A stretch of 64,000 bases of DNA from an uncultured Candidatus Saccharibacteria bacterium (GTDB lineage Bacteria; Patescibacteriota; CALEFQ01; G965231055), in assembly GCA_965231055.1 (NCBI GenBank), contig OZ246411.1, forward strand, positions 345,875 to 409,874. Direction: 5' to 3'. This document shows, in pieces, positions 147 through 52,320 of the stretch. The notes below the pieces were generated by a model, which was not told the origin of the DNA, did not search any database, and was given only the letters and a program-made list of their open reading frames with translations. Made by a program: the position numbers and the translations under genes. Positions within the stretch are counted from its first letter, which is position 1. Each line of letters starts with the position of its first letter.

Positions 147-476
147 TTAATGACTATGCTTCGCAGAGTTACTTTTCATAACTGAAAAGTAACCAAAAGG
201 TTTGTGGGGTGTTCAAAAGTCGCTAGTTGCAAAGATATAACACTCCATGATGCTTAAGATGACGCTCCGACAGTTGAACACCCCAAACCCCATTGATACA
301 TGAAATAGTCAGCTTGATTACGAGCGCGGCGTGATGATAGTTTGCTGAATGCCGAATACCGAATGCTGAAAGCTGAAAACTGAGCACTTCGCCTGTTAAT
401 ACTTCATTTGACTAGCGCAAGTTTGTTATGTAGTATAAGCGCACGCTTTTTGAAAAATTAATAAACATATAAGACA

Positions 477-1097
477 ATGGAACAGCAAAACGCTCAAGCA
501 GAGAATTCCCAAAAACCAGAAGATAAGAATCAATCTTCAAATGTAGAGGCCAATATCTCAGCTGAAGCCGACGAAAAGAAAAAGGGTTTCAGAAACGGTA
601 TTATTGCCGCAGTAGTGATAGTTGTATTGGTAGCGGCCGGAATCTATTTTGCCACCAAGAATGACGATGAGGCAAAAACTGAAGATGAACAAGCAACCGA
701 ACAATCAGCTTCTGAAGTGAAACAAGAAATTGCAAAGGAAGAAATAGAAGAGCTCAAGAAGAATCCAACCGAAGTCAAAGTTGAGGGTGCACACAAAGAC
801 GGTAAGTACACCGAAGTTGCCAACAAAGGCGATGGGGTGACTCAACTTGGAAGAAGAGCACTAGCAAACTATGAAAAGTTGAATTCAGACAAGCTTCCAG
901 AAAAATTCAGCAATGAACACAGAATTTATGTAGAGGACTATCTTATGAAACATACTTCTAGCAAATGGCTAGGGGTAGGTGATCAGTTTGATTTTTCTGA
1001 CGAACTTGTGGAAGAAGCTATCGAAAAAGCTTCTGCACTTACAGATTCACAACTACAAAATCTTACTCAATACAGCGTATCGGTTTTTGGAAAATAA
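477..1097 (+). CDS. hypothetical membrane-anchored protein (single N-terminal TM, charged N-terminal tail)
   Basis: 206-aa ORF. Hydrophobic segment IIAAVVIVVLVAAGIYFA after a K/E-rich N-terminus. A terminator hairpin follows at about 1115-1146. Confidence 0.6.
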   Translation: MEQQNAQAENSQKPEDKNQSSNVEANISAEADEKKKGFRNGIIAAVVIVVLVAAGIYFATKNDDEAKTEDEQATEQSASEVKQEIAKEEIEELKKNPTEVKVEGAHKDGKYTEVANKGDGVTQLGRRALANYEKLNSDKLPEKFSNEHRIYVEDYLMKHTSSKWLGVGDQFDFSDELVEEAIEKASALTDSQLQNLTQYSVSVFGK

Positions 1098-1114
1098 ATC
1101 TCATTAAGCCTTAA

Positions 1115-1146
1115 AAACCTCGGAAAAACTCCGAGGTTTTTTGTTT
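1115..1146 (+). terminator. intrinsic terminator
   Basis: acctcgg-aaaaact-ccgaggt hairpin followed by ttttttgttt. Confidence 0.7.
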
Positions 1147-1194
1147 ATTAATATGATTTTATGTGATATAATAGTTAAATATTAAATACAAAAA

Positions 1195-1581
1195 ATGACA
1201 AACACAAAAAACAATATGCAAGATCCCAAAAAACCTGTATTAACGCAGGACGAGATTCAGGAAGTTCCACAAGAAATGGTGCTTTTTGCCGAATCTCTCA
1301 TTGAAAAAGCGGGACTAAGCAATCTTCCCGAAGACTTTTTTGATATATATAGGAAAAAGCTTGCCTATGAGGCTATGCGTAGAGTGGGAATAATGGTGAT
1401 GCTTAAGACAGACAAAGAAAAAATTCAGTCTCTTTTTGAAAAACAAGAAGAGCTTGAGTCAAATCCCGCCGAAGCTTACAAGATAATCAAGTCTCAAATC
1501 CCAGAAGTAAGTGAAATCACGAAAGAGGCCCTGAAGGATTTTGAGAGTGAGTTTTTAATAGCTACCAAAAAGAATGGTTAA
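1195..1581 (+). CDS. hypothetical small acidic cytoplasmic protein
   Basis: 128-aa ORF. Its stop overlaps the start of the next ORF (ATGGTTAA, 8-nt overlap), consistent with translational coupling. Confidence 0.55.
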   Translation: MTNTKNNMQDPKKPVLTQDEIQEVPQEMVLFAESLIEKAGLSNLPEDFFDIYRKKLAYEAMRRVGIMVMLKTDKEKIQSLFEKQEELESNPAEAYKIIKSQIPEVSEITKEALKDFESEFLIATKKNG

Positions 1582-4500
1582 TACAGAACTAGCACAACCA
1601 AATAATAATACAAACGAGCAGAGAGATACTGCGAAAGTTGATATTAGGAGCATGGATGCTAGAAAAACAAGAATCGATGCGATCGCTTCTCTGACACAAT
1701 CAAGAATTCATAAAAAAAGAGATGAGGCTATTGAAGCAGGTTATGAGCTAGAAACGGCTCTGAAGCGTGGTGATCAGAGTGAAATAAACCGCTTGAAAGG
1801 CAAAAACGAAACCATAGTTCGTGAGATGCAAGGATTACATGAGTTGGGGGATTTTTTAATACAAAAAGAATATATTTCCGGGAAAGGTGTTAGACATGAG
1901 TTAGGGTGGATTTTAGAAAGGAGAGCAGTTGACTCATCCAGTATTGACGATCATATTAATTTGTTTTTCGCGAGATCTGTTACTGCTGGCGGAATAGATA
2001 GGACAAGAGCTCAAGCGCAAAGTAAATGGTATAAAATAAAGCATCCTATAGATACAGTGAAGGAGTTTTTTAGTTTGAGTCAGGAAGAGCTTGATAGGAG
2101 ATATGATGTGACAGAAGCTGCTTTGTATTCGTTGCTAATAGAGAAGATGGGAGTTGTTACCGGTAGCACTGACGAAGAAAAACGACAAAATTTTGATGTT
2201 TTCGTGAGGGAAATGATTGGAAAAGTTGAACCTGCAGTAAACCAAATAGCTGTAAAAAAGAAGCTTCTTTTTTCAGGTGAGTCTATAGCTAAAACCATTT
2301 TATTTTCAGCTATGATTGGATCTGCATTTACTCCTGCTGCCGTTTTTGCTGTACCATCTTTTTCATTGTTGTCTTATGGATACGGTAAATATTCGAAATG
2401 GAGACGAAATAAGGAGGGTAGTACTATAAATAATGAAGAATTTGCAAAAAAGAAATCGAAGATATTGAAAAACAAAAAATCCTCAGAGATACTAACTAGA
2501 ACATTTTTTCAAAAGATCGGAGATAAGTACGAGCAAGAGTGTCTGCGTAAATTTGGCATGAATCAGGAAAGTACTTTGGATTTGGATTTATTAAAAGATT
2601 ATTCGGAAGTATTAACGATTAATAATCCAGAGCAAAGAGAAAACCTTATACAATCTCTTGTTGGTGGTGAGATTATGGCTAAAAAGAGTGAAGAGCTTTT
2701 GATAAAAGAAATTGAATCAAATTCGGGTGTGGATCAAAAAATCGAGGAGTTTGATAGAAGTATCGGTAGTACTGAAAATAGTTTTTGGCTAGATAAAATC
2801 CCATTTGTAGCTAGGTGGGCAACTTATATGGCGATTGCCAGTAAAGATCTAGGAATTGAAAAGGTAGTTTCCGATAGCTACTTGGCTAATGGAGCTCCAT
2901 TGTTCAGAGCTATTGTTGGAGGTATCGCTGGATATAAACTTTCTGATAGGTTGAATATTGCACTAAGATCAGGGGGCATTCGTAGTAAGATAAGAGGAAT
3001 GGATAGAAATCTTAGAAAAATTTTGAATAATTTGGAGGGTATAGATGAGGAGAGGCGAATTGATGAAGTTTTACAAAATGCTGACGATAGAGCCAAGGTG
3101 AAAGCTTTTCTTTTGTCTGAGATAGCTGGAGCTTCTCGCAAAGATTATTTAAAACCTCAAGAGCACGATCAACTTGAAAAAAATAAAAAAGCATTGGAGG
3201 TTATAAATCTAGCTGAAATACGACATCACGAGCAGCTTAAAGCGGGGCTTGATAAAGTTATAGGATCAAGCGAGGATTATAGTAGGGCGCTTGAGGGTTT
3301 ATATAAATCAATCAGCTCAAGGGATGAGGCTGGGGTGAAGTTATCTCAAAAAGCAAGAAAGCGCAATATTGAAGACTTGATTGTAGCTGAAACTGAAAAG
3401 TTTCATTCCAGGAAACTTATTTTCAGAGTAGGTGGTACTGTAGTTGGTGCTCTCGCGCCTTTTATTATACGACACTTTCTGGGTTCTTTTTCTGGTGAAT
3501 CGTCTGATGCAAAGCATCGCGCATCAGCTTCGGGTGATGATGCTCCAAAATCCGACGAAGCTTCTAGTCTCACTAAAGATAAAATATCTAAGGCAGGTTC
3601 TAGTGTCGAGGGCGCTGGTGAAAAAGAAGCTCCTAGCGTTGACAAGGCAGAGCATGCAGTTAAAAAAGGCGTGGTACCTTCGAAGGAAGTTGCGGTAGAA
3701 GATGCAGTAACTGGACCAAGAGAATTAAAATGGGCAGATGTAGACAAAAACGCTGTGGTCAAACAGAACGAAGGTGTTTGGCATGCTGTAAAAAGACAAA
3801 TCGAGGGAGATAATGACATTAGAAAGGCGCTGGGACTTACTGAAAGTGCCACAAAGGATGAAATAAATAGAGCAACTGCAAAATTATTGGTTGATAATGA
3901 CTACATAAAACCTGATCATACCGAGGTTAGAGTTCTAAAAGCAGATGCAGTGGCTTATGATGCCAAAGTTGTGAATGATAAAGTGGTTATATCAGAATTG
4001 CATAGTGTGGCAGGGAAAGCAGTTGAAGGAAGCAAAGGTATCGATAAGGCATTTGAATACAGTTATAAACAACCCATTAAACCTGTGGAGCTTTCTTCTT
4101 TGCGATCGGGAGTGAGCGAAGAGCTTTTTGATCGCGAATCTCTGAGAATTTACGGTGGACATGGGGAGGTTGCACTTGGCAGTGGCGACACCGGTGATTC
4201 TTTATTGCTTTTTGATGACAGAGACTCTGTTGTAAGGAGTTTTGACATTGCTGATGGTGTGGCTCCGGAAAAAACTATGGATATTATGCAAGATGTTAAA
4301 ATGCTAGAAGATTATGACGGAATAAAAAGCTTTACTAGTGCTCTAGAGGACTCTGGCTACGGAAGCTACGGATTTGAATCGCGTTTAGATAGCATGACCG
4401 CCCAACAAGAAAAAGTTTTTGAAGAGGCTTTTGGTGTCAAAGGATTCGATAAAATGTCCCTTAGGTTCAACGTAGATAAAGAGGCTCTAATGGATTTTAC

Positions 4501-5296
4501 TAGAAATCATAACACGAAAACTATTGATATTTTTGCAATGATTTCTGGGGATCAGCCAATTCCAAAGGGATGTGAGAACCTAATCAAGGCTGCAAGAGGT
4601 GTTATAGCGGAGCGCATTGATTCCTATGGTGCGGGATATACTGACCTTGTAAATACAATGGTTGTGGGTGAGATAAACGATAATGGATTGATACAATTCC
4701 TCAATGAAAATTATACAGACCAGAGGCTAATGGATGCAAAAGAGTTCAGGCTTTTGGAAGATTCATCTGTTTTGGATTCGTCGATTGATAGTGGCTCGAG
4801 TTCCCCTGATTTAGTTGGTGGAGAAGAAGAGGCTATTACGAGATCGTCAGTAGAGCTTCCTGCTAATTCAAAAGCTATAGCCAAAACACTTTTTGAATTG
4901 GACGATCGAAAAATAAATCAAATGTTGAGTGAGAGAGGTAGTCTGTCCGAGTCTCTTGATGACATGGATGGTGATTTGAAAAAGTCACTTAATGACACGA
5001 TTGATCAGTTTAAATCACGAGCAAGTGTGGTAGAGAAACTCGCTACAAAAGGAGAAACAAATATTCCTGGGCTAGATGATTTTAGAATTATATCAAATGC
5101 ATCATCTAAACCAGCTGGTGAAGTTTACAATAGTTTATTTAAACTAATGGGACAAGAAAAAGAGCTTGATAAGTTTTTAGAAGCACACGACGAGAATGCA
5201 TTTACTAGAGATCTAGGTGATATTGGTTCTGTTGCTACGCAGAGTGAAGAAGACATTGAGGCCGAAAGAAGAAAAAAAATTCTTGAATGGTTATAA
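1574..5296 (+). CDS. giant hypothetical protein (1,240 aa), coiled-coil N-terminus and predicted TM hairpins, unknown function
   Basis: Long uninterrupted ORF. Hydrophobic stretches (e.g. ILFSAMIGSAFTPAAVFAVPSFSLL; GGTVVGALAPFIIRHFLG). No P-loop or other catalytic motif recognised. Weak hairpin plus T-run at about 5342-5370. Confidence 0.7.
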   Translation: MVNTELAQPNNNTNEQRDTAKVDIRSMDARKTRIDAIASLTQSRIHKKRDEAIEAGYELETALKRGDQSEINRLKGKNETIVREMQGLHELGDFLIQKEYISGKGVRHELGWILERRAVDSSSIDDHINLFFARSVTAGGIDRTRAQAQSKWYKIKHPIDTVKEFFSLSQEELDRRYDVTEAALYSLLIEKMGVVTGSTDEEKRQNFDVFVREMIGKVEPAVNQIAVKKKLLFSGESIAKTILFSAMIGSAFTPAAVFAVPSFSLLSYGYGKYSKWRRNKEGSTINNEEFAKKKSKILKNKKSSEILTRTFFQKIGDKYEQECLRKFGMNQESTLDLDLLKDYSEVLTINNPEQRENLIQSLVGGEIMAKKSEELLIKEIESNSGVDQKIEEFDRSIGSTENSFWLDKIPFVARWATYMAIASKDLGIEKVVSDSYLANGAPLFRAIVGGIAGYKLSDRLNIALRSGGIRSKIRGMDRNLRKILNNLEGIDEERRIDEVLQNADDRAKVKAFLLSEIAGASRKDYLKPQEHDQLEKNKKALEVINLAEIRHHEQLKAGLDKVIGSSEDYSRALEGLYKSISSRDEAGVKLSQKARKRNIEDLIVAETEKFHSRKLIFRVGGTVVGALAPFIIRHFLGSFSGESSDAKHRASASGDDAPKSDEASSLTKDKISKAGSSVEGAGEKEAPSVDKAEHAVKKGVVPSKEVAVEDAVTGPRELKWADVDKNAVVKQNEGVWHAVKRQIEGDNDIRKALGLTESATKDEINRATAKLLVDNDYIKPDHTEVRVLKADAVAYDAKVVNDKVVISELHSVAGKAVEGSKGIDKAFEYSYKQPIKPVELSSLRSGVSEELFDRESLRIYGGHGEVALGSGDTGDSLLLFDDRDSVVRSFDIADGVAPEKTMDIMQDVKMLEDYDGIKSFTSALEDSGYGSYGFESRLDSMTAQQEKVFEEAFGVKGFDKMSLRFNVDKEALMDFTRNHNTKTIDIFAMISGDQPIPKGCENLIKAARGVIAERIDSYGAGYTDLVNTMVVGEINDNGLIQFLNENYTDQRLMDAKEFRLLEDSSVLDSSIDSGSSSPDLVGGEEEAITRSSVELPANSKAIAKTLFELDDRKINQMLSERGSLSESLDDMDGDLKKSLNDTIDQFKSRASVVEKLATKGETNIPGLDDFRIISNASSKPAGEVYNSLFKLMGQEKELDKFLEAHDENAFTRDLGDIGSVATQSEEDIEAERRKKILEWL

Positions 5297-5387
5297 AAAG
5301 TATTAACTGCTATGCATAAAAAATTTATATTTTACATGAAAGCTCCATCGCAAGGTGGAGTTTTATTTAATTTTAGGTAAAAGAAAA

Positions 5388-5428
5388 GGACCCCTGAAAG
5401 AGCAGTGTATGTGGGGTCCTAAAAAAAA
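5388..5428 (-). terminator. intrinsic terminator of the 5451..6503 gene
   Basis: 8-bp stem aggacccc/ggggtcct followed on the minus strand by a T-run. Confidence 0.5.
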
Positions 5429-5450
5429 TATATGAAATTGTGTGTGGGGG

Positions 5451-6503
5451 TTATATTCCGGAGATTAATGCTCTCCGTTCTTCGGCACGCTTTTCGCGTG
5501 CATCCATTTCTGCAAAAATCTCTGATCGAGGTTTGTCGATTGCCTCGATCCCAAGTCTCATTATTTGTTCATGAGAAATTTCTTGCATTTTTTCTCCGGT
5601 AAACAGTCTGTATATGACTGCTCGCAGGAGTTTTGGATTGAATCCCAGTTGCTGGAACTGCTGTGAGTTTCGTCCTTTTGGGTTTTCGCCGATGTCTGAG
5701 TAGCCCTTCTTTAGTGCTTTAGCGAATGTCATGTTCGGATGGGTTCCTTGGAAATGCTGATCCTGACATATCGTGTAGTACGCAATCTGCTCTTTCGAAA
5801 GAACTACGTCTTCTACACCCTTGGCGTATTGTTGATTCTCGCTTTGCAAGTCGTCATTTCTTTTTTCACTTTTTTCCAGTGCATTCCGGCATTGTCCAAT
5901 AAGTGATCTGAGATTCTCATTATCTTCTTCGAGCGCAGTTTTTAATGCATCTGGTTTAGGAGTCGCTTTCGCTTTGGGTTTTTCATTGCTGGAGTCAGCG
6001 GGGCGAACAATAGCCGTGCCGGTACTCGGGGTGTTTCCACACCCGACGATCCTGTTGAGGGCTCTGATCTGCAGGTCCAGAACAATAATTTTTGAATCTT
6101 CTGTTTCTGCACCTCGGTCTTGCTTGAGCTTGACGATACTTGCCTTGAGAATGTCCTTGCGAGTTTCTTTGTCTCCGGCGTCGGGTTTCTTTATTATTTT
6201 TTCTGTGATTGATTTCGGGATATTTACCGAGATCCCCGCGTAGCCTTTGAGCTCATTAATAAATGCAACGAGTATGATTGCCCCGGCGTCTGAATCAGGT
6301 TTTTCCGATTTTAAGGACTCAATCTTGTCGATGACAGCGTCTTTCCGAGCCTTCAGATCGAAATGATCCGGGTCGGGGATTGGAGTGATCGCCGGCTTGG
6401 TCTCTTCAGGCTTTGTGGCCGGTGCTGGGGCAGTTTGACAGAAAACAGTGGATACGCACACGCACAGAGCAAAGAGTGACGCGAAAAGGTAAAAGTGTTT
6501 CAT
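5451..6503 (-). CDS. secreted hypothetical protein (N-terminal signal peptide)
   Basis: 350-aa ORF. AAGGAGG lies 5 nt upstream of the ATG. Signal-peptide-like MKHFYLFASLFALCVCVSTVFCQTAP. Minus-sense hairpin (aggacccc...ggggtcct) plus T-run downstream at 5388-5428. Confidence 0.65.
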   Translation of the reverse strand: MKHFYLFASLFALCVCVSTVFCQTAPAPATKPEETKPAITPIPDPDHFDLKARKDAVIDKIESLKSEKPDSDAGAIILVAFINELKGYAGISVNIPKSITEKIIKKPDAGDKETRKDILKASIVKLKQDRGAETEDSKIIVLDLQIRALNRIVGCGNTPSTGTAIVRPADSSNEKPKAKATPKPDALKTALEEDNENLRSLIGQCRNALEKSEKRNDDLQSENQQYAKGVEDVVLSKEQIAYYTICQDQHFQGTHPNMTFAKALKKGYSDIGENPKGRNSQQFQQLGFNPKLLRAVIYRLFTGEKMQEISHEQIMRLGIEAIDKPRSEIFAEMDAREKRAEERRALISGI

Positions 6504-6785
6504 TCAAACCTCCTTGTCCCGAAACGGGACGTGATGTTGTTTACAGTAAGTGGACACAAGCGAGCTATTAGATATAGCCTGCTTGTTTTGCCAATCTTTC
6601 GATCGGCTTAACACGCCATGAATTGCTGAAAATAATCCCAACAGCTCATAACTAACGGCTAATAGCTCATTTTGTGTCCACTTTTCACACACAAATTGTG
6701 AAAGATCGGCTTTAAGCCGAATTTCAGCTTAACGCTGGACACTACCATTTTACTCTTTTATTGTCAAGCAAGATGAATATTCAAC

Positions 6786-6814
6786 TTGACAAAGTGTCAT
6801 ATGTGATGTAGTGT
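6786..6814 (+). promoter_or_regulatory. candidate sigma70-like promoter (TTGACA-17 nt-TAGTGT) embedded in an 8-bp inverted repeat (ttgtcaag...cttgacaa)
   Basis: Read directly. It lies upstream of the 6955 gene in a 450-bp divergent intergenic region. Confidence 0.3.
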
Positions 6815-6954
6815 AGGGCGTTAAAATCTATTCATTTCAGTGCTCGTAAAACTCTTTAAAAGACGTAAAAAAGGGTTTTGCGAGTGTTGAAACTGAACGT
6901 TCATGTATAAAATTTATCTGCGTTATTCTAGAAATAACGCAAAGGAGGCTGAAA

Positions 6955-7962
6955 ATGCTGGAATTGAAATCATTATGGGAATCGACTGGTATAAAGGTTC
7001 GCGCTGGCTTGATACTGCTTGTTTTAATTGTTGTGGTTATGGGATATATGTTTGTTGCAAGTCTCATTCGCGAGAATAATTCAACCGAAACTGAGACGGC
7101 AACTGATGAAGCACAGCAATCTGTTCCCGTTTTGCCAATTGAAACTCCTCAGCCCACGAAACCCGTATATGTGGCAGTGGTTTCTGACAAGATTGTCGAT
7201 GCGATTTGGGAACCACTCAATGATTCGCTAATAAGCGATATTATGGATGGAAAACTTCGGGGTATGGTATATGTTTCTTCGGTAGCAGAAATCGTCCTTG
7301 CCGAGATAAAACAGCAGAATAATGTTCCAGTGAGTGTGTCGATTCAAAATCATGACGGTCTTCCGATCGGGAAATTTGCATGGAGCTTGCTCAATGATTA
7401 CGAATTTCTAACAGCTTTGAATTCCGAATTAATCAATCGATTCCAGAAAAGTCACGGAAAGGTATCGGGCGAAAAAATTGTTGAGCTGGCCAAGTTTTTC
7501 CTGCTGGCGTCACGAAATAGGGAAGAAGTGGCGTATGAAGATCTATGGGAACAATCAGAAAATCCCATGGTGGATTTCATACTTCGAAAATGGGGAAAAT
7601 TTCATGGTGGAATAGACTATGAAGGCTTCACTGTGAATGAAGACATTTATTCATTCGCATTCGTTTGGATTGCAGTGGGGGGAGGAACGATACCTACAGA
7701 GTGGGTGAATAAGTGTTATATAAACAATATTGCCTTCAGAAGAATTATTAGAAGCTCTTCTGAAGACATCCCAACGCCAAATCCATCGGAGTATGGAATT
7801 GCATTGAACACTCCATTGCCAACTCAAACACCTCAGTTGAAAGATGACGCTACTTCCACACCGGTTCCGGAAACTCCTGATGTTGGATGTGGTAGCCAAA
7901 AATCAGAAGATACTGCTCCTACCCCAGCCAAAACCAAAGCCAAGGTTCCGAGTTTTCTCTAG
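6955..7962 (+). CDS. hypothetical membrane-anchored protein (N-terminal TM, extracytoplasmic domain, P/T-rich C-terminus)
   Basis: 335-aa ORF. AAAGGAGG 7 nt upstream. TM segment GLILLVLIVVVMGYMFVASLI. Confidence 0.6.
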   Translation: MLELKSLWESTGIKVRAGLILLVLIVVVMGYMFVASLIRENNSTETETATDEAQQSVPVLPIETPQPTKPVYVAVVSDKIVDAIWEPLNDSLISDIMDGKLRGMVYVSSVAEIVLAEIKQQNNVPVSVSIQNHDGLPIGKFAWSLLNDYEFLTALNSELINRFQKSHGKVSGEKIVELAKFFLLASRNREEVAYEDLWEQSENPMVDFILRKWGKFHGGIDYEGFTVNEDIYSFAFVWIAVGGGTIPTEWVNKCYINNIAFRRIIRSSSEDIPTPNPSEYGIALNTPLPTQTPQLKDDATSTPVPETPDVGCGSQKSEDTAPTPAKTKAKVPSFL

Positions 7963-8178
7963 CGTTCATTAACCTGCTCATTTCGCGGAATTTCCTTAAA
8001 AAAGAAATTCCGCCCTTCGTTTTGAACTTATTTATGAGTTCAGGAGGAAGAGAAAATCAGAAAGTGCCCTTCCTTTTTGGCTACAAAATACGTTGTGATT
8101 GAAAAGGGAAGACATGTATTGATCATTCAAAATTTAACAATTTTCTAAACCCACTTAAGATGTGGGAAGGAGGTACTC

Positions 8179-9225
8179 GTGTTTATAAACGATCTAAGTA
8201 CGCAGAACGGTTCGAAATTTCTAATTACTCTCTTGTGGGTAATCCTAATCTTCATTTGCATATTGTTCTTGATGGCATATGCATTCACCTGGGGTCTTAC
8301 CGATCTCCTTCATCCATGGTTTTGGGTCAAGGTGATTGCCGGAATTTTGTTCATCGTGCTTTTTTTCTCGGTAGTAAAGTTCGTGAGGGTTCCTGCCGTC
8401 ACCGTAATTCCCGCAGAATGGTTTTGGGGTACTCCCATTATTTTGCAATCGGGGTTAAAGGTCTTCATCAAATTTGCTATGAATATTCGAGAGTTTGAGT
8501 GGACCACAAAAACCTCCGCTAAAACAGAGACCAAGAAGCTCAAGAGCCTTGATCTTCGACCGACTGAGATGAACACTTCTGAAGAGGCCATTCACAGCGA
8601 CAGCGGACGCAGTAAAACTGCGTGTACGGTGATTTTCGAAGTATTCAATCCTCGTCAGGCCATTTTCGGAGCCAATGATGCTCCCAATATGTTGGACGAC
8701 AAGATTCGTTCTTCATTGAGAGATATCGCATCGCGTGAAACCTTCAACGCCTTCTCTGCAAGAAACAAGGGAGAAGTAGCGGATGACGTTCTGAATCTGC
8801 TCAATAATAAAATTTCTCTTCTGGGATTGAGAATTCTTAGTTTGGATATAACTTCGGTAGAGCCGATCGGGGACACTAAGAAATTCATGGAGACCACTCT
8901 GCGCGCAAAAACCGAGGCTGACGCAAGAATCTTGGTAGCCAAGGCGAGACAAAGGGAAACCGAAATTGACAACCGATCTGTCTATCTCATTGCAAGGCAT
9001 GAGAATGTCTCTATGGAAGAAGCTGAGGTCACCTTTCAGCAACGCATGGACAAGAGGTCTCAGCAGAAAGCAGCTGAGAATGGCGGTTTAGTGATCGCAA
9101 GTCCTGGGGCGAATGTGAGTGTTTCACCTGATCGTCAAAAGCGAAACGATTCTCCCAAGGGGAAAAATATAGAATGGGAGAATTTTGATGACGAAGACGA
9201 CGATGAAGAAGAAGGCAACCCTTAA
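8179..9225 (+). CDS. SPFH/band-7 (prohibitin/HflK-like) domain membrane protein
   Basis: GTG start preceded by GGAAGGAGG. Two N-terminal TM segments, then a ...ILSLDITSVEP...RAKTEADARILVAKARQRETEID... segment typical of the SPFH domain and its coiled-coil tail. Acidic C-terminus. Confidence 0.55.
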   Translation: MFINDLSTQNGSKFLITLLWVILIFICILFLMAYAFTWGLTDLLHPWFWVKVIAGILFIVLFFSVVKFVRVPAVTVIPAEWFWGTPIILQSGLKVFIKFAMNIREFEWTTKTSAKTETKKLKSLDLRPTEMNTSEEAIHSDSGRSKTACTVIFEVFNPRQAIFGANDAPNMLDDKIRSSLRDIASRETFNAFSARNKGEVADDVLNLLNNKISLLGLRILSLDITSVEPIGDTKKFMETTLRAKTEADARILVAKARQRETEIDNRSVYLIARHENVSMEEAEVTFQQRMDKRSQQKAAENGGLVIASPGANVSVSPDRQKRNDSPKGKNIEWENFDDEDDDEEEGNP

Positions 9226-9375
9226 ATAGTTTGAAAGGGCGGAAAATTGTTAAATAGTTCATTTGCGGAATCTCATTCTTGTTACTCTGACAGATTCCGC
9301 CCTTTATCAAATGTTTCATGGTGAAACTTTTGAAAGAGGTGTTCATTAAAATTAAAAAAAGAGAGGGGAAAGAAG

Positions 9376-9897
9376 ATGAAAACATTTATATTTTTGTTTA
9401 TTTTCTGTGGTTCAGTGGTTTTTGCTCAGGCTCCTTTCATTGTTGAGGATTGGTTGAGCGAAGGCAATAGCCCTAACTATCTCGATGGCGAATCGGGTAC
9501 TATTCTCCATCGCATGGCTAAGACGGGAGTTTTTCTTGACGAAGGAGAGTGTTCAGAAATAATCGAAATCCTGATCGCCCATGGAGTTTTTCTTGATAAA
9601 GTTGACCACAACGGCAGGACCGCATTGATGGTTGCTATCAAGGAAAAAAATCTGGTTCTCGCCAAAGTCATTATTAATGCCGGAGCAAAGGTGTGCTTGA
9701 GCGATAGTGAGGGTGATTCTACTCTTCACTTCGCTTCCAGGATTGGAGACATTGATTTGATAGAGATGATTTTGGAGCGAGGAGCTAGCCCGAGCCAGAG
9801 AAACGAATATGGAGAAAGCCCATACGAGATTGTTTTTTTCTCAGGTAATGAAAAAGCCTTCAAAATAATGGACTTCTATATTCGCCGTCTTTTCTAG
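9376..9897 (+). CDS. secreted ankyrin-repeat protein
   Basis: Signal peptide MKTFIFLFIFCGSVVFAQA. Ankyrin consensus stretches (GRTALMVAIKEKNLVLAKVIINAGAKV; GDSTLHFASRIGDIDLIEMILERGASP). Confidence 0.7.
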   Translation: MKTFIFLFIFCGSVVFAQAPFIVEDWLSEGNSPNYLDGESGTILHRMAKTGVFLDEGECSEIIEILIAHGVFLDKVDHNGRTALMVAIKEKNLVLAKVIINAGAKVCLSDSEGDSTLHFASRIGDIDLIEMILERGASPSQRNEYGESPYEIVFFSGNEKAFKIMDFYIRRLF

Positions 9898-9922
9898 CTC
9901 TCATCGTTCTTTTGTATTTTAA

Positions 9923-9948
9923 ATCCTACCTTCGGGCAGGATTTTTTA
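9923..9948 (+). terminator. intrinsic terminator
   Basis: atcctacc-ttcg-ggcaggat hairpin followed by tttttt. Confidence 0.6.
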
Positions 9949-10016
9949 TTACATTGATTATCTGATATAAATATGCTATAATATAAAAGTTAGTTTATTC
10001 ATTAAAACAAAAAAAA

Positions 10017-10196
10017 ATGAGCTCAAAAGTAATGCTTATGATCGTGAGCGTTCTCGTGCTTCTAATGGGTGTCTTGGCTCTATTGCCTTCATTGGAAATG
10101 GCTACAGAACCTATGTGGCACGCAGTAGTAAAGATTATCGTAGGTATCGCCGGTTTGGCAGTTGCTATGATGGATAAGAAAAAAATGGTTGCTTAG
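10017..10196 (+). CDS. possible small hydrophobic protein (59 aa, two predicted TM helices), not in the ORF track
   Basis: ATG...TAG ORF read directly (MSSKVMLMIVSVLVLLMGVLALLPSLEMATEPMWHAVVKIIVGIAGLAVAMMDKKKMVA). A cacccattgaagggtg plus T7 terminator follows at 10245-10267. No clear SD. Confidence 0.3.
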   Translation: MSSKVMLMIVSVLVLLMGVLALLPSLEMATEPMWHAVVKIIVGIAGLAVAMMDKKKMVA

Positions 10197-10244
10197 TCTT
10201 TCAAACAAATTCGCCCTCGCGAGCGATTTTGTTATATAAAAAAT

Positions 10245-10267
10245 CACCCATTGAAGGGTGTTTTTTT
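10245..10267 (+). terminator. intrinsic terminator
   Basis: cacccattgaagggtg hairpin followed by ttttttt. Confidence 0.6.
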
Positions 10268-10268
10268 G

Positions 10269-10290
10269 TTTGGGGTGGCTGATGGGATTT
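10269..10290. repeat. 22-bp direct repeat of the tRNA-His 3' end (ttggggtggctgatgggatttg), second copy at 10384-10405 inside the tRNA
   Basis: Identical 22-mer seen twice, about 93 bp apart. Candidate att-site remnant or tRNA pseudogene fragment. Confidence 0.6.
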
Positions 10291-10384
10291 GCCCCGCAAG
10301 CGTGCGGGGTTGTCGCTTCGCTCCAAAACTTGGATACAGCTTTATTCTTTATATTACACTTTGTGCTTCGAGATTCGTTATTAT

Positions 10385-10462
10385 TGGGGTGGCTGATGGG
10401 ATTTGAACCCACGACCTGCGGGACCACAACCCGCCGCTCTAACCAGCTGAGCTACAGCCACC
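10385..10462 (-). tRNA. tRNA-His (anticodon GTG), with encoded G-1 and CCA
   Basis: Manual folding: acceptor GTGGCTG/CAGCCAC, T-loop TTCAAAT, anticodon loop TTGTGGT, and an extra 5' G pairing with the discriminator C. Confidence 0.8.
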
Positions 10463-10622
10463 TCGCCGTCACTTCGCTTAGCTCGTTTTGGTGAGCAAGC
10501 TAGTGCTATGCTAAATATTTATTTCGTAAACTTTGCGGTATTGATTTTTTTCATATTCTGAAATTTAGCACCTAAAACCTAATTCATCTAGTTCCACTAA
10601 TTATTCTAAAATTTCTAGTAAG

Positions 10623-10699
10623 TGGCGTCCCCGGCAAGGATCGAACTTGCAACCTACAGCTTAGAAGGCTGTCGCTCTATCCAATTGAGCTACGGGGAC
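10623..10699 (-). tRNA. tRNA-Arg (anticodon TCT)
   Basis: Manual cloverleaf: GTCCCCG...CGGGGAC acceptor, anticodon loop CTTCTAA, T-loop TTCGATC, encoded CCA. Confidence 0.8.
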
Positions 10700-10894
10700 A
10701 CGCGTGGTTTCGATGTTGGGTATTAGTTTTCAGGTGTTAGAAGATCTAGAAGTATTAGATGTATTAGATCTTGGTGCAAATATTTCAATTTGAAGCAACT
10801 TGCATGATCTAAAACTTCTAATACCTCTAATAACTAAAACCTGAAACTTCTAGTCCTTCTAGTCACTGAAACCTCTAACCTAAAACCTAGTTAT

Positions 10895-10971
10895 TGGTGC
10901 ACCCGGAAGGAATCGAACCTTCAACCTCTAGTTCCGAAGACTAGCGCTCTATCCAGTTGAGCTACGGGTGC
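10895..10971 (-). tRNA. tRNA-Arg (anticodon TCG)
   Basis: Manual cloverleaf: GCACCCG...CGGGTGC acceptor, anticodon loop CTTCGGA, CCA encoded. Confidence 0.75.
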
Positions 10972-11131
10972 GCGTACGAGGTGCTAGGTTCTAGGGATTA
11001 GGTTCTGGGTGTTAGTGGAACTAGAGGATAAAGTAGTATTAGAGTGATTAGATGTATTAGAATATTTAGGTTTAAATAATCTTCTAAGCCAACTAATACT
11101 TCTAAAACCTATTCCCTATAACCTAGCCGAG

Positions 11132-11209
11132 TGGTGGACCCGAGCGGGGTCGAACCGCTGACCTCGGCAATGCGAATGCCGCGCTCTAGCCAAGCTGAGC
11201 TACGGGCCC
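11132..11209 (-). tRNA. tRNA-Ala (anticodon CGC)
   Basis: Manual cloverleaf: GGGCCCG acceptor with a G3:U70 pair (Ala identity), anticodon loop TTCGCAT, CCA encoded. Confidence 0.8.
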
Positions 11210-11283
11210 TTACGAGGTGACGCTAGCTACTAAAATCTGAAACTTCTAATTCTTCTAAAACCTATCACCTAAAACCTCAACTG

Positions 11284-11359
11284 TGGTGGGCGCAGAGGGA
11301 TTCGGACCCCCGACCTTATCCTTAAGAGGGATCTGCTCTACCAACTGAGCTATGCGCCC
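11284..11359 (-). tRNA. tRNA-Lys (anticodon CTT)
   Basis: Manual cloverleaf: GGGCGCA...TGCGCCC acceptor, anticodon loop CTCTTAA, T-loop TCCGAAT, CCA encoded. Confidence 0.8.
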
Positions 11360-11437: not shown

Positions 11438-12412
11438 TTATTTTCTTCTTTTTGCGTGAAAGGCTTTGTGTACTTCACGAAGCTGTTTGTCTGTCACGTG
11501 AGTGTATATTTGAGTAGTGGTGATAGAGGAGTGACCGAGCATTGATTGGACTGATCTGATGTCTGCTCCATTTGAAAGTAGGTCTGTGGCAAAGCTATGG
11601 CGGAGAGAATGTGTACTTATATCTTTTGATATACCTGCGAATTTGGCGTATTTTTTTATTGTTCTTTGCACGGTTCTGGGGGTGAGCCGTGGTTCTTTTG
11701 AATTATCTATATCTTCTTTTGCTGTTTTTGGATCAAAAGGAATGAACAAAGCTTTGAAATTATCTTTTCGCTTTGCCAAATAATTTTTGATAGCAGTCTT
11801 CGCAGAGTTAGAAAGAAATACGATTCTGGGTTTATCTCCTTTGCCTCTTATTGTAAATTCATCTTTGTTTAGATTTACACTTTCCTTATTTAGATTTGTA
11901 AGTTCGCTTACGCGAAGTCCCGTAGAAAAAAGCAGTTCCAAGATCGCCTTGTCTCGGAGCCTAGTTTTTTCGTGATCAATTTTGAGCTGATTTGGTTGCT
12001 TGCTGGTATTTGAAAAAGAAATAGACATGGGAGCATTTAGCAATCTTTCTATTTCATCTTGGTCAAGAAACTCTATGATCCTTCTTTCTGTTTTAGGTAG
12101 TTCTATTTTTTCAGGAGCCAGTGTTTTTATATCCTTTTTCGCTAAATATTTAAGAAACACTCGGAGCGCAATCATATGATAGTTTTGGGTAATTTTTTTG
12201 AGTGGTTTGCCTGAGGCATCTGTGTGACGATTTAACATAAGCCTAAAACTTCTTACTTTTTCTTGGGTGATCTCTTTGGGGGAGGAGATCTTCATCCAAT
12301 CAAAAAATCGCTTCAAATAATGATCATAATTTTGAATAGTTTTTTGTGAATGATTTTTTTCTATTTCACAGTACTCTAGAAAGTCCGTGACTAGCGTGTT
12401 GGCTGTGGCCAT
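11438..12412 (-). CDS. tyrosine site-specific recombinase (XerC/XerD-like integrase)
   Basis: C-terminal catalytic motifs HSLRHSFATDLL...LGHSSITTTQIYTHV (R-H-R-Y family). N-terminal SAM-like core-binding region. Directly adjacent to the tRNA array. Confidence 0.8.
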   Translation of the reverse strand: MATANTLVTDFLEYCEIEKNHSQKTIQNYDHYLKRFFDWMKISSPKEITQEKVRSFRLMLNRHTDASGKPLKKITQNYHMIALRVFLKYLAKKDIKTLAPEKIELPKTERRIIEFLDQDEIERLLNAPMSISFSNTSKQPNQLKIDHEKTRLRDKAILELLFSTGLRVSELTNLNKESVNLNKDEFTIRGKGDKPRIVFLSNSAKTAIKNYLAKRKDNFKALFIPFDPKTAKEDIDNSKEPRLTPRTVQRTIKKYAKFAGISKDISTHSLRHSFATDLLSNGADIRSVQSMLGHSSITTTQIYTHVTDKQLREVHKAFHAKRRK

Positions 12413-12570: not shown

Positions 12571-12876
12571 TTAAAGTTTGCAGGTCGAATGATCGGCCCC
12601 GATCTTGCGCAGGAGTCCGATGAGCATTTTTCCTCCTTTTGTTTTAATGCTCGGTTTTGCTTCTCTGTCTTTTTTTGTCATCTTCTTCTCATATTTTTCG
12701 AGGGCTTCGATGACCTCTTCCGTCTTTTTCAGTCTGATGCCGTGATTAAGCGTATCAATCACGTCTATTGCCCAAGCATCGCCGAGTTTCTGAAAAAGAT
12801 CATTTGCTCTTACGAAAAGATCTCCGAGCCTTGTTTCAAACTTTTGTCGAAAAAAATCAATTTGATGGCTGTTCAC
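12571..12876 (-). CDS. hypothetical protein (101 aa)
   Basis: GTG start with AGGAGG 7 nt upstream. Preferred over the overlapping plus-strand ORF 12589..12909, which is F/C-rich and unnatural. Confidence 0.5.
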   Translation of the reverse strand: MNSHQIDFFRQKFETRLGDLFVRANDLFQKLGDAWAIDVIDTLNHGIRLKKTEEVIEALEKYEKKMTKKDREAKPSIKTKGGKMLIGLLRKIGADHSTCKL

Positions 12877-34789: not shown

Positions 34790-36928
34790 GTGAAAAAGAT
34801 TATTAAAACAAAAAATAGAAAATTATTTCTCTTGAGCATGGTTATATGCGCTTGTCTTTTTTTGGTTTTACTGCCGATGGGATTTGCTGGAGCTGGTTTT
34901 GAAATCATGTCATATGTAAATCAGATAATAGGTGCTGTTCTAACTTTCCTGATTAGAACAGTTTTGATGTGTATAGTATGGATCGCAGGTATTTTTGATG
35001 CTTTTGTGCAGGGTGTTTGGGCTAGAGATAGTGGTATGGTTGATTTGGGGTGGGGACTTGTGAAGGATTTGATGAACATGGGATTTATCTTGGTGATGCT
35101 TACTATCGCGTTTGCAACCATTTTCAAAATTCAGGCGTACTCTGTTAAAGCGCTTTTACCGAAGCTTTTAATAGCAATACTTCTTATAAATTTTTCCAAA
35201 CATATATGTTATGTAGTTGTGGATTTCGCTGAAGTTCTGATGTTCTCTATGAGTAACTCTGAAAATATTACATCTCTTGGTAGGGCGAAATCATTTAGTG
35301 CCTGGAAGGATTTAGAAGGATATAATGATGGTTCAACTGATGCAACGCAGATGTGGGCTAAATTTGATAGCAGATATAAGCAACCAAAGGGACAACATGG
35401 AATAGGTATGGCTTTGGTTTATGCTCTCGGGTTACCTCAGTTAGATATAAGCTTGGCTGCATCTCGTTTGGATACAAATCAAGCTGATGGTTCTAAATTT
35501 CATACCGGTGATTTTATCGTTCAGCTTGCGATGATCTTTTTATTTTCTTTGTATATAGCTTTTGTGATTTTGGGGTTGTTAGTGCTTTTTGTGGGTAGAA
35601 AAATTGGTATATGGATGTACACGATTTTTTCTCCTTATGCTTTTTGGACATTTACGGTACCATTTTTACGGAGCCATCTAAGTAAGTGGTGGTCGAAATT
35701 TGGTGGAATAGTTTTTATGGGGCCAGTCGCTATGTTTTATATATATCTTGCTAGCAACTTCATGGTTAAATCTCTTGCGACTAATTTAGAACCAATAGCT
35801 ATTAATGGCAATAATGTTGAACGATATTTCGAAGCTTTTCCTATAGGCCAGCTCAATGGTGACGCTATGTTTATTACTATAGTTGTTCTTGTGTTGCTCA
35901 CGATGGCAATTGGAACAGGTAAAAAAATGGGTATCGCCACGGCAGGTTTTGTGGAGAGTATGGGTAAAAAAATACAAGGCGGTATTACCAAGAGGCTCAA
36001 AAAGGGAGCCTCCAGAATTGGTTCTGCGGCTTGGTCTGGCACCAAAGGTGCAGTTTCTGCTACGGCAATGGGTACCAGGAGAGTCTTGCAAGGAACTCAG
36101 GATAAAGTTTTGTCTCAGTGGAAGGGCGCTCAGGAACGACGTAGTGAACGAAAGAAGGAAGTTGCTGAAAGTCAAAAGAATCTCGAGGGTTTATCCTCCG
36201 ATACTATTTCTGGTAGTCTAAATCAGTTTAAATCTACTCTTCTTGGAAGAATGACTAGGAAACAAAGGAATGATATTGGCGGAAGATTGAACGAGCTTTC
36301 GAAGAGGGGCGAGCTCGATAAGGCTATAGTTACAGATAGTAAGGGGGGGAGAAGTATAGCCGGATTCAATATTGATACCAAAGAAGGCGCAGATAAGTTG
36401 ATGAAATTTGCTGATTTTATTGGTGCGGACAGCAAAGCTATGATGAATGCTATGCCTGAGCTCTCAGCTGCAGGTATTAGTAAGTCTGATGCAAACGCGT
36501 CTAAAAGAGTTTTAGCAATTAAGGAAAAGATTAAAAAGGGAGAGGGTAAAAAGATTTCAAAGTCATCTCTTTCTGATTTTGCAGTTGCTGGAGCTCTTAG
36601 TTTGAATCAGATTAGAAACATAAATAAGGAAGGATCGGTTGATCAACAAGAGGCTCTTGTCGGTGGGATGGGTAAGGCTTTGGATATGGTATACGCTGGT
36701 CATATTACGGGGCAGGATGGGTTGTCTGTAATCAGAAATGCGAAAAATCTCGCCCTTGATAGTATGAAGGCAAGAGGAGAGCATACTAGGGGAATTGAAA
36801 AGGATTTTGATAAGTATAAAGTGAAATTTGAAAATGGTAATTTTGTCTTGATTCCACCCGCTCCTAATGTTGGACCCACTCAGCAACCTGCTCCACAGCG
36901 TCCCCCAAGAAATCAAAGACGACCTTAG
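34790..36928 (+). CDS. VirB6/TrbL-like polytopic membrane protein with hydrophilic C-terminal domain
   Basis: 712 aa. At least 7 hydrophobic helices in the first roughly 380 aa, then a charged or coiled C-terminal domain ending in a Pro-rich tail. Position immediately upstream of VirB3/VirB4 homologues. Confidence 0.45.
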   Translation: MKKIIKTKNRKLFLLSMVICACLFLVLLPMGFAGAGFEIMSYVNQIIGAVLTFLIRTVLMCIVWIAGIFDAFVQGVWARDSGMVDLGWGLVKDLMNMGFILVMLTIAFATIFKIQAYSVKALLPKLLIAILLINFSKHICYVVVDFAEVLMFSMSNSENITSLGRAKSFSAWKDLEGYNDGSTDATQMWAKFDSRYKQPKGQHGIGMALVYALGLPQLDISLAASRLDTNQADGSKFHTGDFIVQLAMIFLFSLYIAFVILGLLVLFVGRKIGIWMYTIFSPYAFWTFTVPFLRSHLSKWWSKFGGIVFMGPVAMFYIYLASNFMVKSLATNLEPIAINGNNVERYFEAFPIGQLNGDAMFITIVVLVLLTMAIGTGKKMGIATAGFVESMGKKIQGGITKRLKKGASRIGSAAWSGTKGAVSATAMGTRRVLQGTQDKVLSQWKGAQERRSERKKEVAESQKNLEGLSSDTISGSLNQFKSTLLGRMTRKQRNDIGGRLNELSKRGELDKAIVTDSKGGRSIAGFNIDTKEGADKLMKFADFIGADSKAMMNAMPELSAAGISKSDANASKRVLAIKEKIKKGEGKKISKSSLSDFAVAGALSLNQIRNINKEGSVDQQEALVGGMGKALDMVYAGHITGQDGLSVIRNAKNLALDSMKARGEHTRGIEKDFDKYKVKFENGNFVLIPPAPNVGPTQQPAPQRPPRNQRRP

Positions 36929-36942
36929 CTAGTAAATTTAAA

Positions 36943-38481
36943 ATGGATATAAACACACAAACAGGAATGCCGAAAGGTATAATGATAGCAAAAGGACATG
37001 CGGCTACTTTGCGTGTTTCTGCTTTGCTTAAGTCACATGGAGCAACCGATGAACAACTCAGAGGAGCATTCGGTGTTTGGGATAAACTTCTTGATAAAAA
37101 AATAAAATTTCAAGATTTTGCCAAAGAGCTTCAAATAGCTCTAAACTGCAGAGCTGATATGGCGGAGGTTGTTGCCGGAGAGCTCTCTGCCTCAGAGCTA
37201 AAATATCTGGATCCTTATTTTGGAGGAGTGGATGTTTTTGAGACTGCTAAGCAATGGATGAAACACGGGCGCAATTTTCTATTTTCTGACGCTGGTCCTA
37301 TAAACAAAAACACAGCTTCTCCTATTTCAGAAAATGTAGAAAATGAAGACCTGAGGGGGGTTAATATAAATTCTGAACCTAAGCCAGATAGCACTGATCA
37401 AGAAGATGAAAAAGTAGTAGGGCGAAATGTAAATACTCACAAGCGCAAAATTCTTGATAAAGAAAAACTTTATGAGATAACAAAAAAGATTTTGTTTAGT
37501 CAGGGAGTAGAGGGTTTGACAGAAGACAAGCTTCTGAGAATTCAAAACATAATGTTGAGTCAGGTAAAGGATGTGCGAGATACAAATGAAGCTACTCAGA
37601 TGTATGGTCTCGGTTTCGAAAATGGTGGAGTGGGTTTTGATCCTGAGAAAGCGTATTCACTAGCTTCTGCTATTAGTCGTTTAGTAGAGATAGGAAAGTT
37701 AACCCCAGATAAGTTTTATAAAGAAGAGGTTTATGAAAAATCTCAGAATGAACTTCGTGATCCTTGGGAGGAATACGATGTTAGGTCTGCTGGTAAAAAA
37801 GAGATAGTTAGCGAGAGTTACAAAAAGAAACTTTCCTTAGCATCTATTTTGCCTAAATTTGGTGCCAAATCACAAAGAGAAGATTTGAGCCATCAAAAAT
37901 ATGATGAACAAGATAATGCAATACCTTCATCTTTAAATCAGAAAAGCAATAAACTTTTTAGTAGAGAAGAATATGTACCAAAAGAACCTGAAAAGAAAAG
38001 GATTTCAGATTTTTCTTCTGCAAACTCGGGAGTGCTAAATCTAAAAAAACCAGAGCCATTTTTGAAAGAAACAGAGGCGCCAAAAAACCTCTACAGAGTT
38101 TCGGAAAAAATGACAGATGGCATATCAAGTGAAATAAAGAACAAAGGACCTAAAAATTTAGTCGAAATAAAAACCACGGAGGATCTTAAAAAACTTACAC
38201 CATCTTATTTGCGTATGATGGGGAGTAAGGAAGATATGCTTAAAAATCTTTCTGACGGTATCAGCGAGCTCGAAAAAAATGGATATAGCAAGGCAGATAT
38301 GTTTACCAAATGGCAAGAGAGTGAACTCTATACAACTTATTTGGACATGGGACGACAGAGTATATTTTCCGGAAATGATATAGCCAAAATAGCAACTACA
38401 TATAAAGATAATGGAAAGCCATACCTCGAGAGTTCAGAATTCGAAGTAGTTGCTGATGTTAGTAAAATGCTTCAAAACTAA
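36943..38481 (+). CDS. hypothetical soluble protein (T4SS-like locus component)
   Basis: 512-aa ORF with no TM and no recognised motif. Tightly packed between the VirB6-like and VirB3-like genes. Confidence 0.5.
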   Translation: MDINTQTGMPKGIMIAKGHAATLRVSALLKSHGATDEQLRGAFGVWDKLLDKKIKFQDFAKELQIALNCRADMAEVVAGELSASELKYLDPYFGGVDVFETAKQWMKHGRNFLFSDAGPINKNTASPISENVENEDLRGVNINSEPKPDSTDQEDEKVVGRNVNTHKRKILDKEKLYEITKKILFSQGVEGLTEDKLLRIQNIMLSQVKDVRDTNEATQMYGLGFENGGVGFDPEKAYSLASAISRLVEIGKLTPDKFYKEEVYEKSQNELRDPWEEYDVRSAGKKEIVSESYKKKLSLASILPKFGAKSQREDLSHQKYDEQDNAIPSSLNQKSNKLFSREEYVPKEPEKKRISDFSSANSGVLNLKKPEPFLKETEAPKNLYRVSEKMTDGISSEIKNKGPKNLVEIKTTEDLKKLTPSYLRMMGSKEDMLKNLSDGISELEKNGYSKADMFTKWQESELYTTYLDMGRQSIFSGNDIAKIATTYKDNGKPYLESSEFEVVADVSKMLQN

Positions 38482-39048: not shown

Positions 39049-39072
39049 AGAAATAATTTTAATAATTCTGAA

Positions 39073-39774: not shown

Positions 39775-39778
39775 AATT

Positions 39779-44732: not shown

Positions 44733-44735
44733 AAA

Positions 44736-52148: not shown

Positions 52149-52320
52149 CTCTCGTCTCCTTGTTATGAAAATGAACGAAAAATCGTCGTTTTGACGATTA
52201 ACTGCCCATATTCTACAAGAAAGGTTGCATTTGTCAAGCGTTTTGTGGATAAGAAAAAACTCGGCGTGAGTCTTTTGGAGACATATTCGCCGAGTTCGGA
52301 TTTGCTCTTCTTGGGTGATG

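Follow-up and report, generated by a model that had tools for sequence, protein, structure and literature searches.

A compositionally atypical block of predicted envelope genes beside a tRNA array in a Patescibacteria genome: a possible immobile remnant of horizontally acquired DNA

Four adjacent genes, here called B1 to B4, at positions 5451-9897 of the 64-kb stretch of DNA analyzed in this study (the window) are its strongest compositional outlier. The window belongs to a genome of the Patescibacteria, or candidate phyla radiation (CPR), of the Paceibacteria type, and the four genes lie downstream of a cluster formed by xer and five tRNA genes (Lys-Ala-Arg-Arg-His). We give roughly even chances to the reading that horizontally acquired DNA has left here, within a plasticity zone, a remnant that is immobile and fixed in the chromosome. 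Horizontal origin is, as we infer, the best explanation of the composition; it is favored because of that composition, its sharp edges, a hairpin specific to the block, the absence of the block from all genomes other than those of the relative or relatives described below, and its position in a plasticity zone next to an integration-prone tRNA gene. A preliminary description of this DNA had proposed a horizontally acquired island. The atypical composition has held, and the block does lie in a variable zone, whereas recent insertion, an associated integrase and bounding attachment (att) sites found no support.

The gene content given in that description was confirmed: the block codes for a signal-peptide ORFan, a membrane-anchored ORFan, a very divergent SPFH protein with two transmembrane (TM) segments and a signal-peptide ankyrin protein. 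B1 (5451-6503, minus strand) codes for a 350-amino-acid protein with an N-terminal signal-like or hydrophobic segment (residues 3-27) and no family match. Its neighbor B2 (6955-7962, plus strand; 335 amino acids) likewise matches no family, and displays an N-terminal anchor (residues 9-41) and a core (residues 74-295) that is well kept in the relative. The divergent control region between them (6504-6954), about 82% identical to that of the relative, includes a TTGACA-type promoter-like site with a palindrome at 6769-6788. B2 is followed by a terminator-like hairpin of the form GCGGAAT..ATTCCGC (7985-8013, plus strand), which is conserved in the relative. B3 (8179-9225, plus strand; 348 amino acids) combines two N-terminal TM segments, a Band_7/SPFH domain (Pfam 4.5e-12; 46.8 bits against a cut-off of 23.6; profile positions 36-174 of 176) and an acidic tail. 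The NCBI version of B3 is a 317-amino-acid form starting at 8272; the longer form, with a GTG start at 8179, adds the first TM segment and is backed by the relative's homolog on contig L085, which aligns from residue 5 of the 348-amino-acid form. A second hairpin of the same sequence follows B3 (9265-9300, plus strand), inside a stretch 94% identical to the relative's contig L087, and the motif is confined to the block within the window. B4 occupies a cassette of 621 nucleotides (nt) with its own terminator (9344-9964, plus strand), the coding sequence of which (9376-9897) specifies a 173-amino-acid protein with an N-terminal signal-like segment and about three ankyrin repeats (Ank_2 4e-25; 88.6 bits against a cut-off of 27.3). 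At 9342-9365 and 9998-10021, in the 5' leaders of B4 and of the small open reading frame (ORF) that follows it, there is an AT-rich direct repeat of 24 nt, its two copies 83% identical; the first of them lies at the left edge of the B4 cassette, and the repeat may be due to chance. Rfam recovered only tRNAs in the window, with no credible match in 5200-10400 at E<=1. The conserved intergenic regions of the block (82-90%) were considered as RNA genes and dropped, the region upstream of xer being equally conserved (84%). Sequence searches of the PDB gave no match.

The guanine-plus-cytosine (GC) content of B1, B2, B3 and B4 is 46.1, 42.5, 44.9 and 42.1%, respectively, in a window with an overall GC of 38.2%, where pnp stands at 38.5% and the DinG-like gene at 37.5%. 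GC at third codon positions (GC3) is 0.464, 0.375, 0.490 and 0.437 in the same order, against a mean of 0.336 (standard deviation (sd) 0.054) for the genes of the window. A 300-nt GC profile shows that both edges are sharp, with GC rising from 0.35 to 0.44 at about 5450 and falling from 0.41-0.45 to 0.33 at about 9900. When the window is cut into 61 overlapping 4-kb segments, those at 5001-9000 and 6001-10000 are the most deviant in tetranucleotide usage (L1 distance z-scores of 3.1 and 3.5), as the sliding comparison proposed with the preliminary description would have it. Similarly, the correlation of tetranucleotide z-scores (TETRA) is 0.149 for the block against a window mean of 0.49 (z -3.35). 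Because the genome displays a strong strand skew, third-position C (C3) was compared within strands: native genes on the plus strand average 0.130 +/- 0.026, against 0.241 for B3, 0.247 for B4 and 0.149 for B2, and those on the minus strand 0.197 +/- 0.023, against 0.268 for B1. The values of B1, B3 and B4 are thus 3-4.5 sd over those of strand-matched genes. In terms of Karlin codon bias, B1 (0.467) and B3 (0.452) exceed all other genes of at least 300 codons, which do not go beyond 0.31, and B2 (0.305) is ordinary. Strand inversion as the cause of the low GC skew was discarded, since it does not account for the raised total GC3. B1, B3 and B4 thus show a real compositional anomaly and B2 a weak one; with that reservation the raised GC earlier ascribed to the four genes is borne out by GC, GC3, the GC steps and tetranucleotide usage. 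The sole other spot in the window with block-like GC3 (0.44) is at 51825-52650 on the minus strand, where there are two family-less small ORFs of 107 and 109 amino acids.

Database searches did not supply a donor. B1 found no homolog but itself, B2 has a single homolog (P0024, 62% identity), and B3 retrieved only itself in a word-index search. Neither B1 nor B3 has a close homolog among 5.8 billion clusters or 1.84 billion representatives; an exhaustive phmmer search with B3 against the 1.84 billion representatives yielded 14 other matches at E<=1e-3, all of them at 21-27% identity. More generally, all the window proteins that were looked up are singletons or near-singletons at 90% identity among about 15 billion proteins. 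None of B1-B4 is present in the 80 Patescibacteria loci around xer that we used for comparison. P0024, however, led to sample ERR4067841, in which four short contigs (L085-L088) represent a relative or relatives. Its own contig, L085 (2,094 bp), carries a B1-like N-terminus in divergent orientation (51% amino acid identity), the B2 homolog and a B3-like N-terminus (45%) in the gene order of the window, with DNA identity of 78-79% that rises to 82-88% between the genes. This copy of the block is also GC-rich (GC 0.40-0.42, GC3 0.42-0.52) as against the relative's xer, inorganic pyrophosphatase (ppa) and 228-amino-acid protein genes (GC3 0.28-0.35). From the same sample come L086 with a Xer protein (93% amino acid identity), L087 with the small ORF (92%) and L088 with g477 (95%), an ORFan upstream of the block in the window. 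Nei-Gojobori estimates between the window and these contigs give synonymous divergence (dS) and ratios of nonsynonymous to synonymous divergence (dN/dS) of 1.0 and 0.04 for xer, 0.79 and 0.36 for B2, 0.36 and 0.16 for the small ORF, and 0.29 and 0.08 for g477. The scatter suggests that the contigs stem from more than one relative, or that there has been recombination among lineages. B1-B3 on L085 stand at a dS of about 0.8, similar to that of xer; they are therefore no younger than the divergence from the organism that bears L085, and are not a recent strain-specific insertion. At the protein level they evolve fast.

B4 presents a different picture. L087 aligns to 9232-9343 (94%) and to 9965-10243 (87%), and in the slot of the B4 cassette it has 184 unrelated nt with a 34-amino-acid TM ORF and its own terminator. 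B4 accordingly appears to be a cassette-level difference between close relatives, and gain here or loss there would fit equally. Comparison with relatives therefore cut both ways for the proposed island: the conserved order of B1-B3 on L085 speaks against it and the lack of the B4 cassette in L087 for it.

The preliminary description had let the block end at the 3' end of tRNA-His, but B4 stops at 9897 and the tRNA ends at 10385, 488 nt away. The first feature in between is the small ORF (10017-10196, plus strand), which codes for 59 amino acids with two TM segments and has a native-like GC3 of 0.305. Homology with L087 stops at about 10243, and a bidirectional terminator hairpin (10245-10260) lies within the stretch of the breakpoint (10244-10270). 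Beyond 10243 the relative's contig runs on for at least 610 nt of AT-rich DNA (GC 0.305) with no tRNA, whereas the window runs on with the terminator, an echo of tRNA-His and tRNA-His itself, which would place a synteny breakpoint immediately outside tRNA-His. Among more distant relatives nothing is kept in the region downstream of tRNA-His. The echo (10270-10347, minus strand) contains at 10270-10291 an exact 22-nt copy of the 3' end of tRNA-His, 92 nt downstream of the tRNA, for which the expected count is 0; the stretch preceding this copy shows weak colinear similarity to the rest of tRNA-His (p about 0.02). Neither ARAGORN nor Rfam calls a tRNA at 10270-10347, and the echo looks like a pseudo-tRNA or an att scar and not like a functional tRNA. 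The closest relative in GTDB has a similar 35-nt copy (L002:5991-6029) about 70 nt after its own tRNA-His. In the window tRNA-His(GTG) (10385-10461, minus strand) closes the Lys-Ala-Arg-Arg-His array (10385-11359); G-1 and CCA are both encoded in its gene. The spacers of this array (10462-11283) contain short repeat families in both orientations, such as CTAAAACCT, TTCTAAT/TTCTAGT and TATTAGAT.

On the far side of the array, the relative has a 228-amino-acid membrane protein and ppa between xer and tRNA-Lys (L086:1251-2896). On the same contig, part of the tRNA-Lys promoter and 5' start is present twice, on either side of about 190 nt. The breakpoint by tRNA-His and the additional genes by xer together mark the whole neighborhood as a plasticity zone. 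The view of tRNA-His as an insertion point, to which the preliminary description had appealed, is upheld: a related metagenome-assembled genome (MAG; locus L034) bears at this gene a 7.7-kb element (2981-10676) bounded by the tRNA and by a copy of its 3' end (10652-10676), and its cargo consists of an HNH protein, a helix-turn-helix (HTH) protein, a tyrosine integrase, a TM2 protein, an AAA_14 ATPase and a large serine recombinase. Upstream of the element a degenerate extra tRNA-His (2515-2583) precedes the intact one (2908-2980). This gene is hence an integration site in the clade.

If the block was acquired, B1-B2-B3 would have arrived before the split from the relative or relatives in ERR4067841 and would subsequently have been kept as fast-evolving envelope genes, with no mobility function left in the block. 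The B4 ankyrin cassette (9344-9964) would have been exchanged later, at a fixed site flanked by B3 and the small membrane ORF. By a simple amelioration estimate of our own, an initial GC3 excess would lose about 60% of its size over the divergence of the two carriers; the persistence of the excess is compatible with a donor of clearly higher GC, without proving one.

Several points weigh against such an acquisition. Neither a donor nor an integrase was found, and searches for att repeats around the block and for remnants of mobility genes were equally negative. The codon usage of B2 is native-like, and the GC3 excess has been kept in two lineages at a dS of about 0.8, which selection could maintain. 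The compositional background is limited to the 64-kb window, out of a contig of 844 kb (843,892 bp). In GTDB even the nearest genomes are far removed (Xer at no more than 63% identity), so that absence of the block there says little, and dS is heterogeneous across L085-L088 (0.29-1.0). Finally, single-sequence AlphaFold models have a predicted local distance difference test (pLDDT) score of about 41 for B2 and 40.5 for B1, which makes them unusable.

A possible but clearly less probable reading is that of a native, lineage-specific cluster of fast-evolving surface genes, the composition of which results from selection (on expression, mRNA structure or amino acid content) or from a local mutational regime. 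It would be in keeping with the presence of the cluster in the relative at about the synonymous divergence of xer and with its being GC-rich in both, with the native composition of B2, and with the lack of mobility genes and att sites. Homologs confined to the relative or relatives are likewise what fast-evolving lineage-specific genes would show, and the dN/dS of B2 indicates fast protein evolution. However, it is not GC alone that deviates: the tetranucleotide signature, in which lower-order composition is normalized away, has its lowest value of the whole window in the block. The C3 excess is measured against strand-matched genes that include rpsO and pnp, so that it is no simple signature of high expression. 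Moreover, the compositional edges are sharp, and g477, g1195 and g1574, ORFans upstream of the block, have an ordinary composition despite being just as lineage-specific.

That the block is a recent island at tRNA-His, mobilized by the adjacent Xer-like integrase, a model that goes back to the preliminary description, we regard as very improbable. Its atypical composition, its vicinity to tRNA-His with the 22-nt copy of the 3' end, and the lack of B4 in L087 would all agree with this model. Nevertheless, the 22-nt copy is located on the side of the block that faces the tRNA, 92 nt from that gene, and the distal copy was not found: no third copy of the tRNA-His 3' end was detected in the window with a 22-mer, a 15-mer or blastn-short with the whole tRNA-His, and there is none near 5300-5450. 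Since the sole copy sits between the tRNA and the block, insertion via this repeat would account for 92 nt only and would leave the block outside. Furthermore, B1-B3 are present in the relative at a dS of about 0.8, and a native-like ORF, itself conserved in the relative, separates the block from the tRNA. Pfam, PHROG, NCBIfam and PADLOC revealed no mobility genes in B1-B4, the matches from PHROG and PADLOC being repeat-level or noise, and no remnants of the L034 element genes were detected in the block. Neither the B3 protein nor the DNA of the whole block matched phages or plasmids, and none of B1, B2, B3 and B4 had a match in IMG/VR. There was no attP candidate either, as a 21-mer of the tRNA-His 3' end hit only complete tRNA-His genes in IMG/VR, on three contigs; and in the JGI metagenomes neither the B2 alignment nor a conserved intergenic 26-mer found a match.

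The Xer-like integrase on the far side of the array, earlier taken as support for an island, turns out to be the housekeeping XerC/D-type recombinase that lies outside any island (11438-12412, minus strand). It matches the XerD and XerC models at 8e-75 and 9e-72, both under the equivalog cut-offs, and a XerA-type model over its cut-off. Among 185,579 GTDB species representatives, those with the most similar proteins are Patescibacteria MAGs (51-63% identity), and the order xer-rpsO-NYN-pnp seen in the window is shared by 58 of the 80 Patescibacteria loci. In several related loci xer is followed by tRNA-Arg(TCT) and tRNA-His. The ortholog on L086, 93% identical and with a low dN/dS, supports this assignment. 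Upstream of xer, a stretch on the minus strand (12571-12660) is 84% identical in the relative and includes the 3' end of an ORF (12571-12876), the last 18 codons of which are preceded by GGAGG; it may represent a small conserved peptide or the end of a real 101-amino-acid gene.

A misjoin of foreign DNA in assembly or binning, for which the MAG-type source and the sharp compositional edges might speak, is hardly credible, since an independent assembly from Logan (L001, seen in 4 samples) agrees with the window at 100% identity over 278-10757 (10,480 nt) and spans both block junctions, which accordingly are no artefact of one assembly pipeline, and since in the relative's contigs the small ORF is joined to the flank of B3 on L087, and B1, B2 and B3 to one another on L085.

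As to function, the domains and topology of the proteins predict that B1 and B4 would be exported by Sec, and that B2 and B3 would be anchored in the membrane, B3 as an SPFH-type membrane scaffold. The ankyrin surface of B4 would then bind proteins outside the cell, plausibly facing the host of a presumed episymbiont, and such a role at the host interface would fit the presumed episymbiotic lifestyle of the group. Transcription would start from the conserved divergent control region (6504-6954), with each gene ended by its own hairpin. NCBIfam and PADLOC gave no defense-system match in B1-B4.

SPFH genes of the stomatin, HflK and flotillin types are often paired with NfeD. B3 shares with this family a Band_7 match above threshold, N-terminal membrane anchoring and a subsequent coiled-coil-like region, but differs in the low identity of its matches (21-27%), its two TM segments and its acidic tail; moreover, neither B2 nor B4 shows an NfeD-family match. 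Two relatives have a canonical SPFH gene between tRNA-Arg(TCT) and tRNA-His (L034:1544-2287 and L047:12254-12940), the location of which beside tRNA-His is probably a coincidence. Orthology of B3 with this gene was rejected (17% identity, E 0.046). B4 resembles the secreted ankyrin effectors of Legionella and Coxiella (Ank) and the ankyrins of sponge symbionts in being short, in having an export signal and in the presumed symbiotic nature of its bearer. However, its scores of 28-44 bits against the Legionella AnkY/H/X/G models, NCBIfam equivalogs with cut-offs of 500-1400, amount to repeat similarity only, and its predicted export signal is of the Sec type as opposed to the type IV secretion signal of Dot/Icm-type ankyrin effectors.

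Genomic islands are reported to be common in Patescibacteria (PMC12455944), and 125 groundwater genomes yielded hundreds of islands, transferred genes and prophages (Gios et al., mSystems 2025, PMC12455944). The same study points out that ancient transfers escape detection by amelioration (PMC12455944). The block comes from the same phylum and is likewise recognized by composition, but its signal persists between two carriers at a dS of about 0.8, and its donor was not found. With tRNA-linked islands such as L034:2981-10676 it has in common the atypical composition, the variable zone by a tRNA gene and a cargo of surface or accessory genes. Unlike the L034 element with its tyrosine integrase, its serine recombinase and, 7.7 kb off, its 3'-end repeat, it has neither an integrase nor bounding direct repeats, is set off from the tRNA by a conserved native ORF, and is mostly shared with the relative. 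The block thus illustrates that a compositional island in the ultra-small genome of a CPR bacterium may be ancient, devoid of mobility and common to relatives, and that a neighboring Xer gene is not to be taken for the integrase of an island. A secreted ankyrin gene in a swappable slot is, in turn, a candidate host-interaction gene in a group whose host interface is little known, and the ORFans B1, B2 and B3, with one relative or none among billions of proteins, would be lineage-restricted envelope proteins.

The echo of tRNA-His also belongs in a wider context. In a survey of 139 tRNA genes from the window and related loci, the last 20 nt of the tRNA recur with at most 2 mismatches 87-162 nt downstream in 9 cases, none of which is annotated as a tRNA; no farther recurrence was seen in the up to 12 kb searched downstream of each of the 139. 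For four of these trailers a strong fold is predicted (z -3.8 to -6.4), of a common shape with an acceptor-like stem, a conserved 9-bp hairpin, a 9-bp stem, a GAAAG junction and one or two inner hairpins, where the 9-bp stem pairs the echo with a complement of the T-loop and T-stem. A covariance model, R1, of the 5' module (hairpin 1, CGTC, T-arm complement and GAAAG) recovered 15 copies at E<=3.4e-05 in 1.2 Mb of related loci, 12 of them 1-55 nt after a tRNA on the same strand. The conserved R1 hairpin displays compensatory changes at 8 of its 9 pairs. In 10 of the 15 copies, 8 or more of the 9 pairs in the stem that matches the T-arm are Watson-Crick, and the sequence of this stem tracks the upstream tRNA. 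The elements are 75-190 nt long and reuse the T-stem strand of the upstream tRNA, and in full-length copies also the acceptor strand. They are found at L061:16638-16790, L042:6596-6750, L065:15498-15648, L065:13905-14010, L013:11038-11160 and L020:11169-11295, as well as in L038, L077, L039, L058, L037, L072, L021 and L052. The family has no match in Rfam 15, and a search of the literature on tRNA-like elements downstream of tRNAs in CPR found nothing relevant; identity with the hammerhead ribozyme was rejected by inspection, because the conserved motifs are arranged around the junction in the wrong order. From sequence and predicted folding, this is apparently an undescribed structured element in Paceibacteria, and a tRNA-mimicking trailing element may be of more general interest if confirmed as new.

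In the window the R1 5' module has no match at E<=1, and with filters off only 10-bit noise was obtained. The echo shares with the trailing family only its position (+95 nt) and the copy of the 3' end, and is at most a decayed relative. It seems rather unlikely that the junction of block and tRNA array was made by an undescribed copying of the tRNA top half, with the echo, at a distance typical of the family, as a decayed copy and the adjoining slot (B3, cassette, small ORF) as an exchange site for secreted effector genes, the ankyrin gene among them.

The other genes of the window are largely ordinary ones, such as rpsO, an NYN-domain gene, pnp, a DinG-like helicase, dksA, lspA, ksgA, uvrD, recG, radA and comM. 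At 39779-41605 there is a VirB4/TraG-like ATPase, set among four large family-less proteins (512-1057 amino acids) within 34790-47903, and this region is possibly a type IV secretion- or pilus-like cluster.

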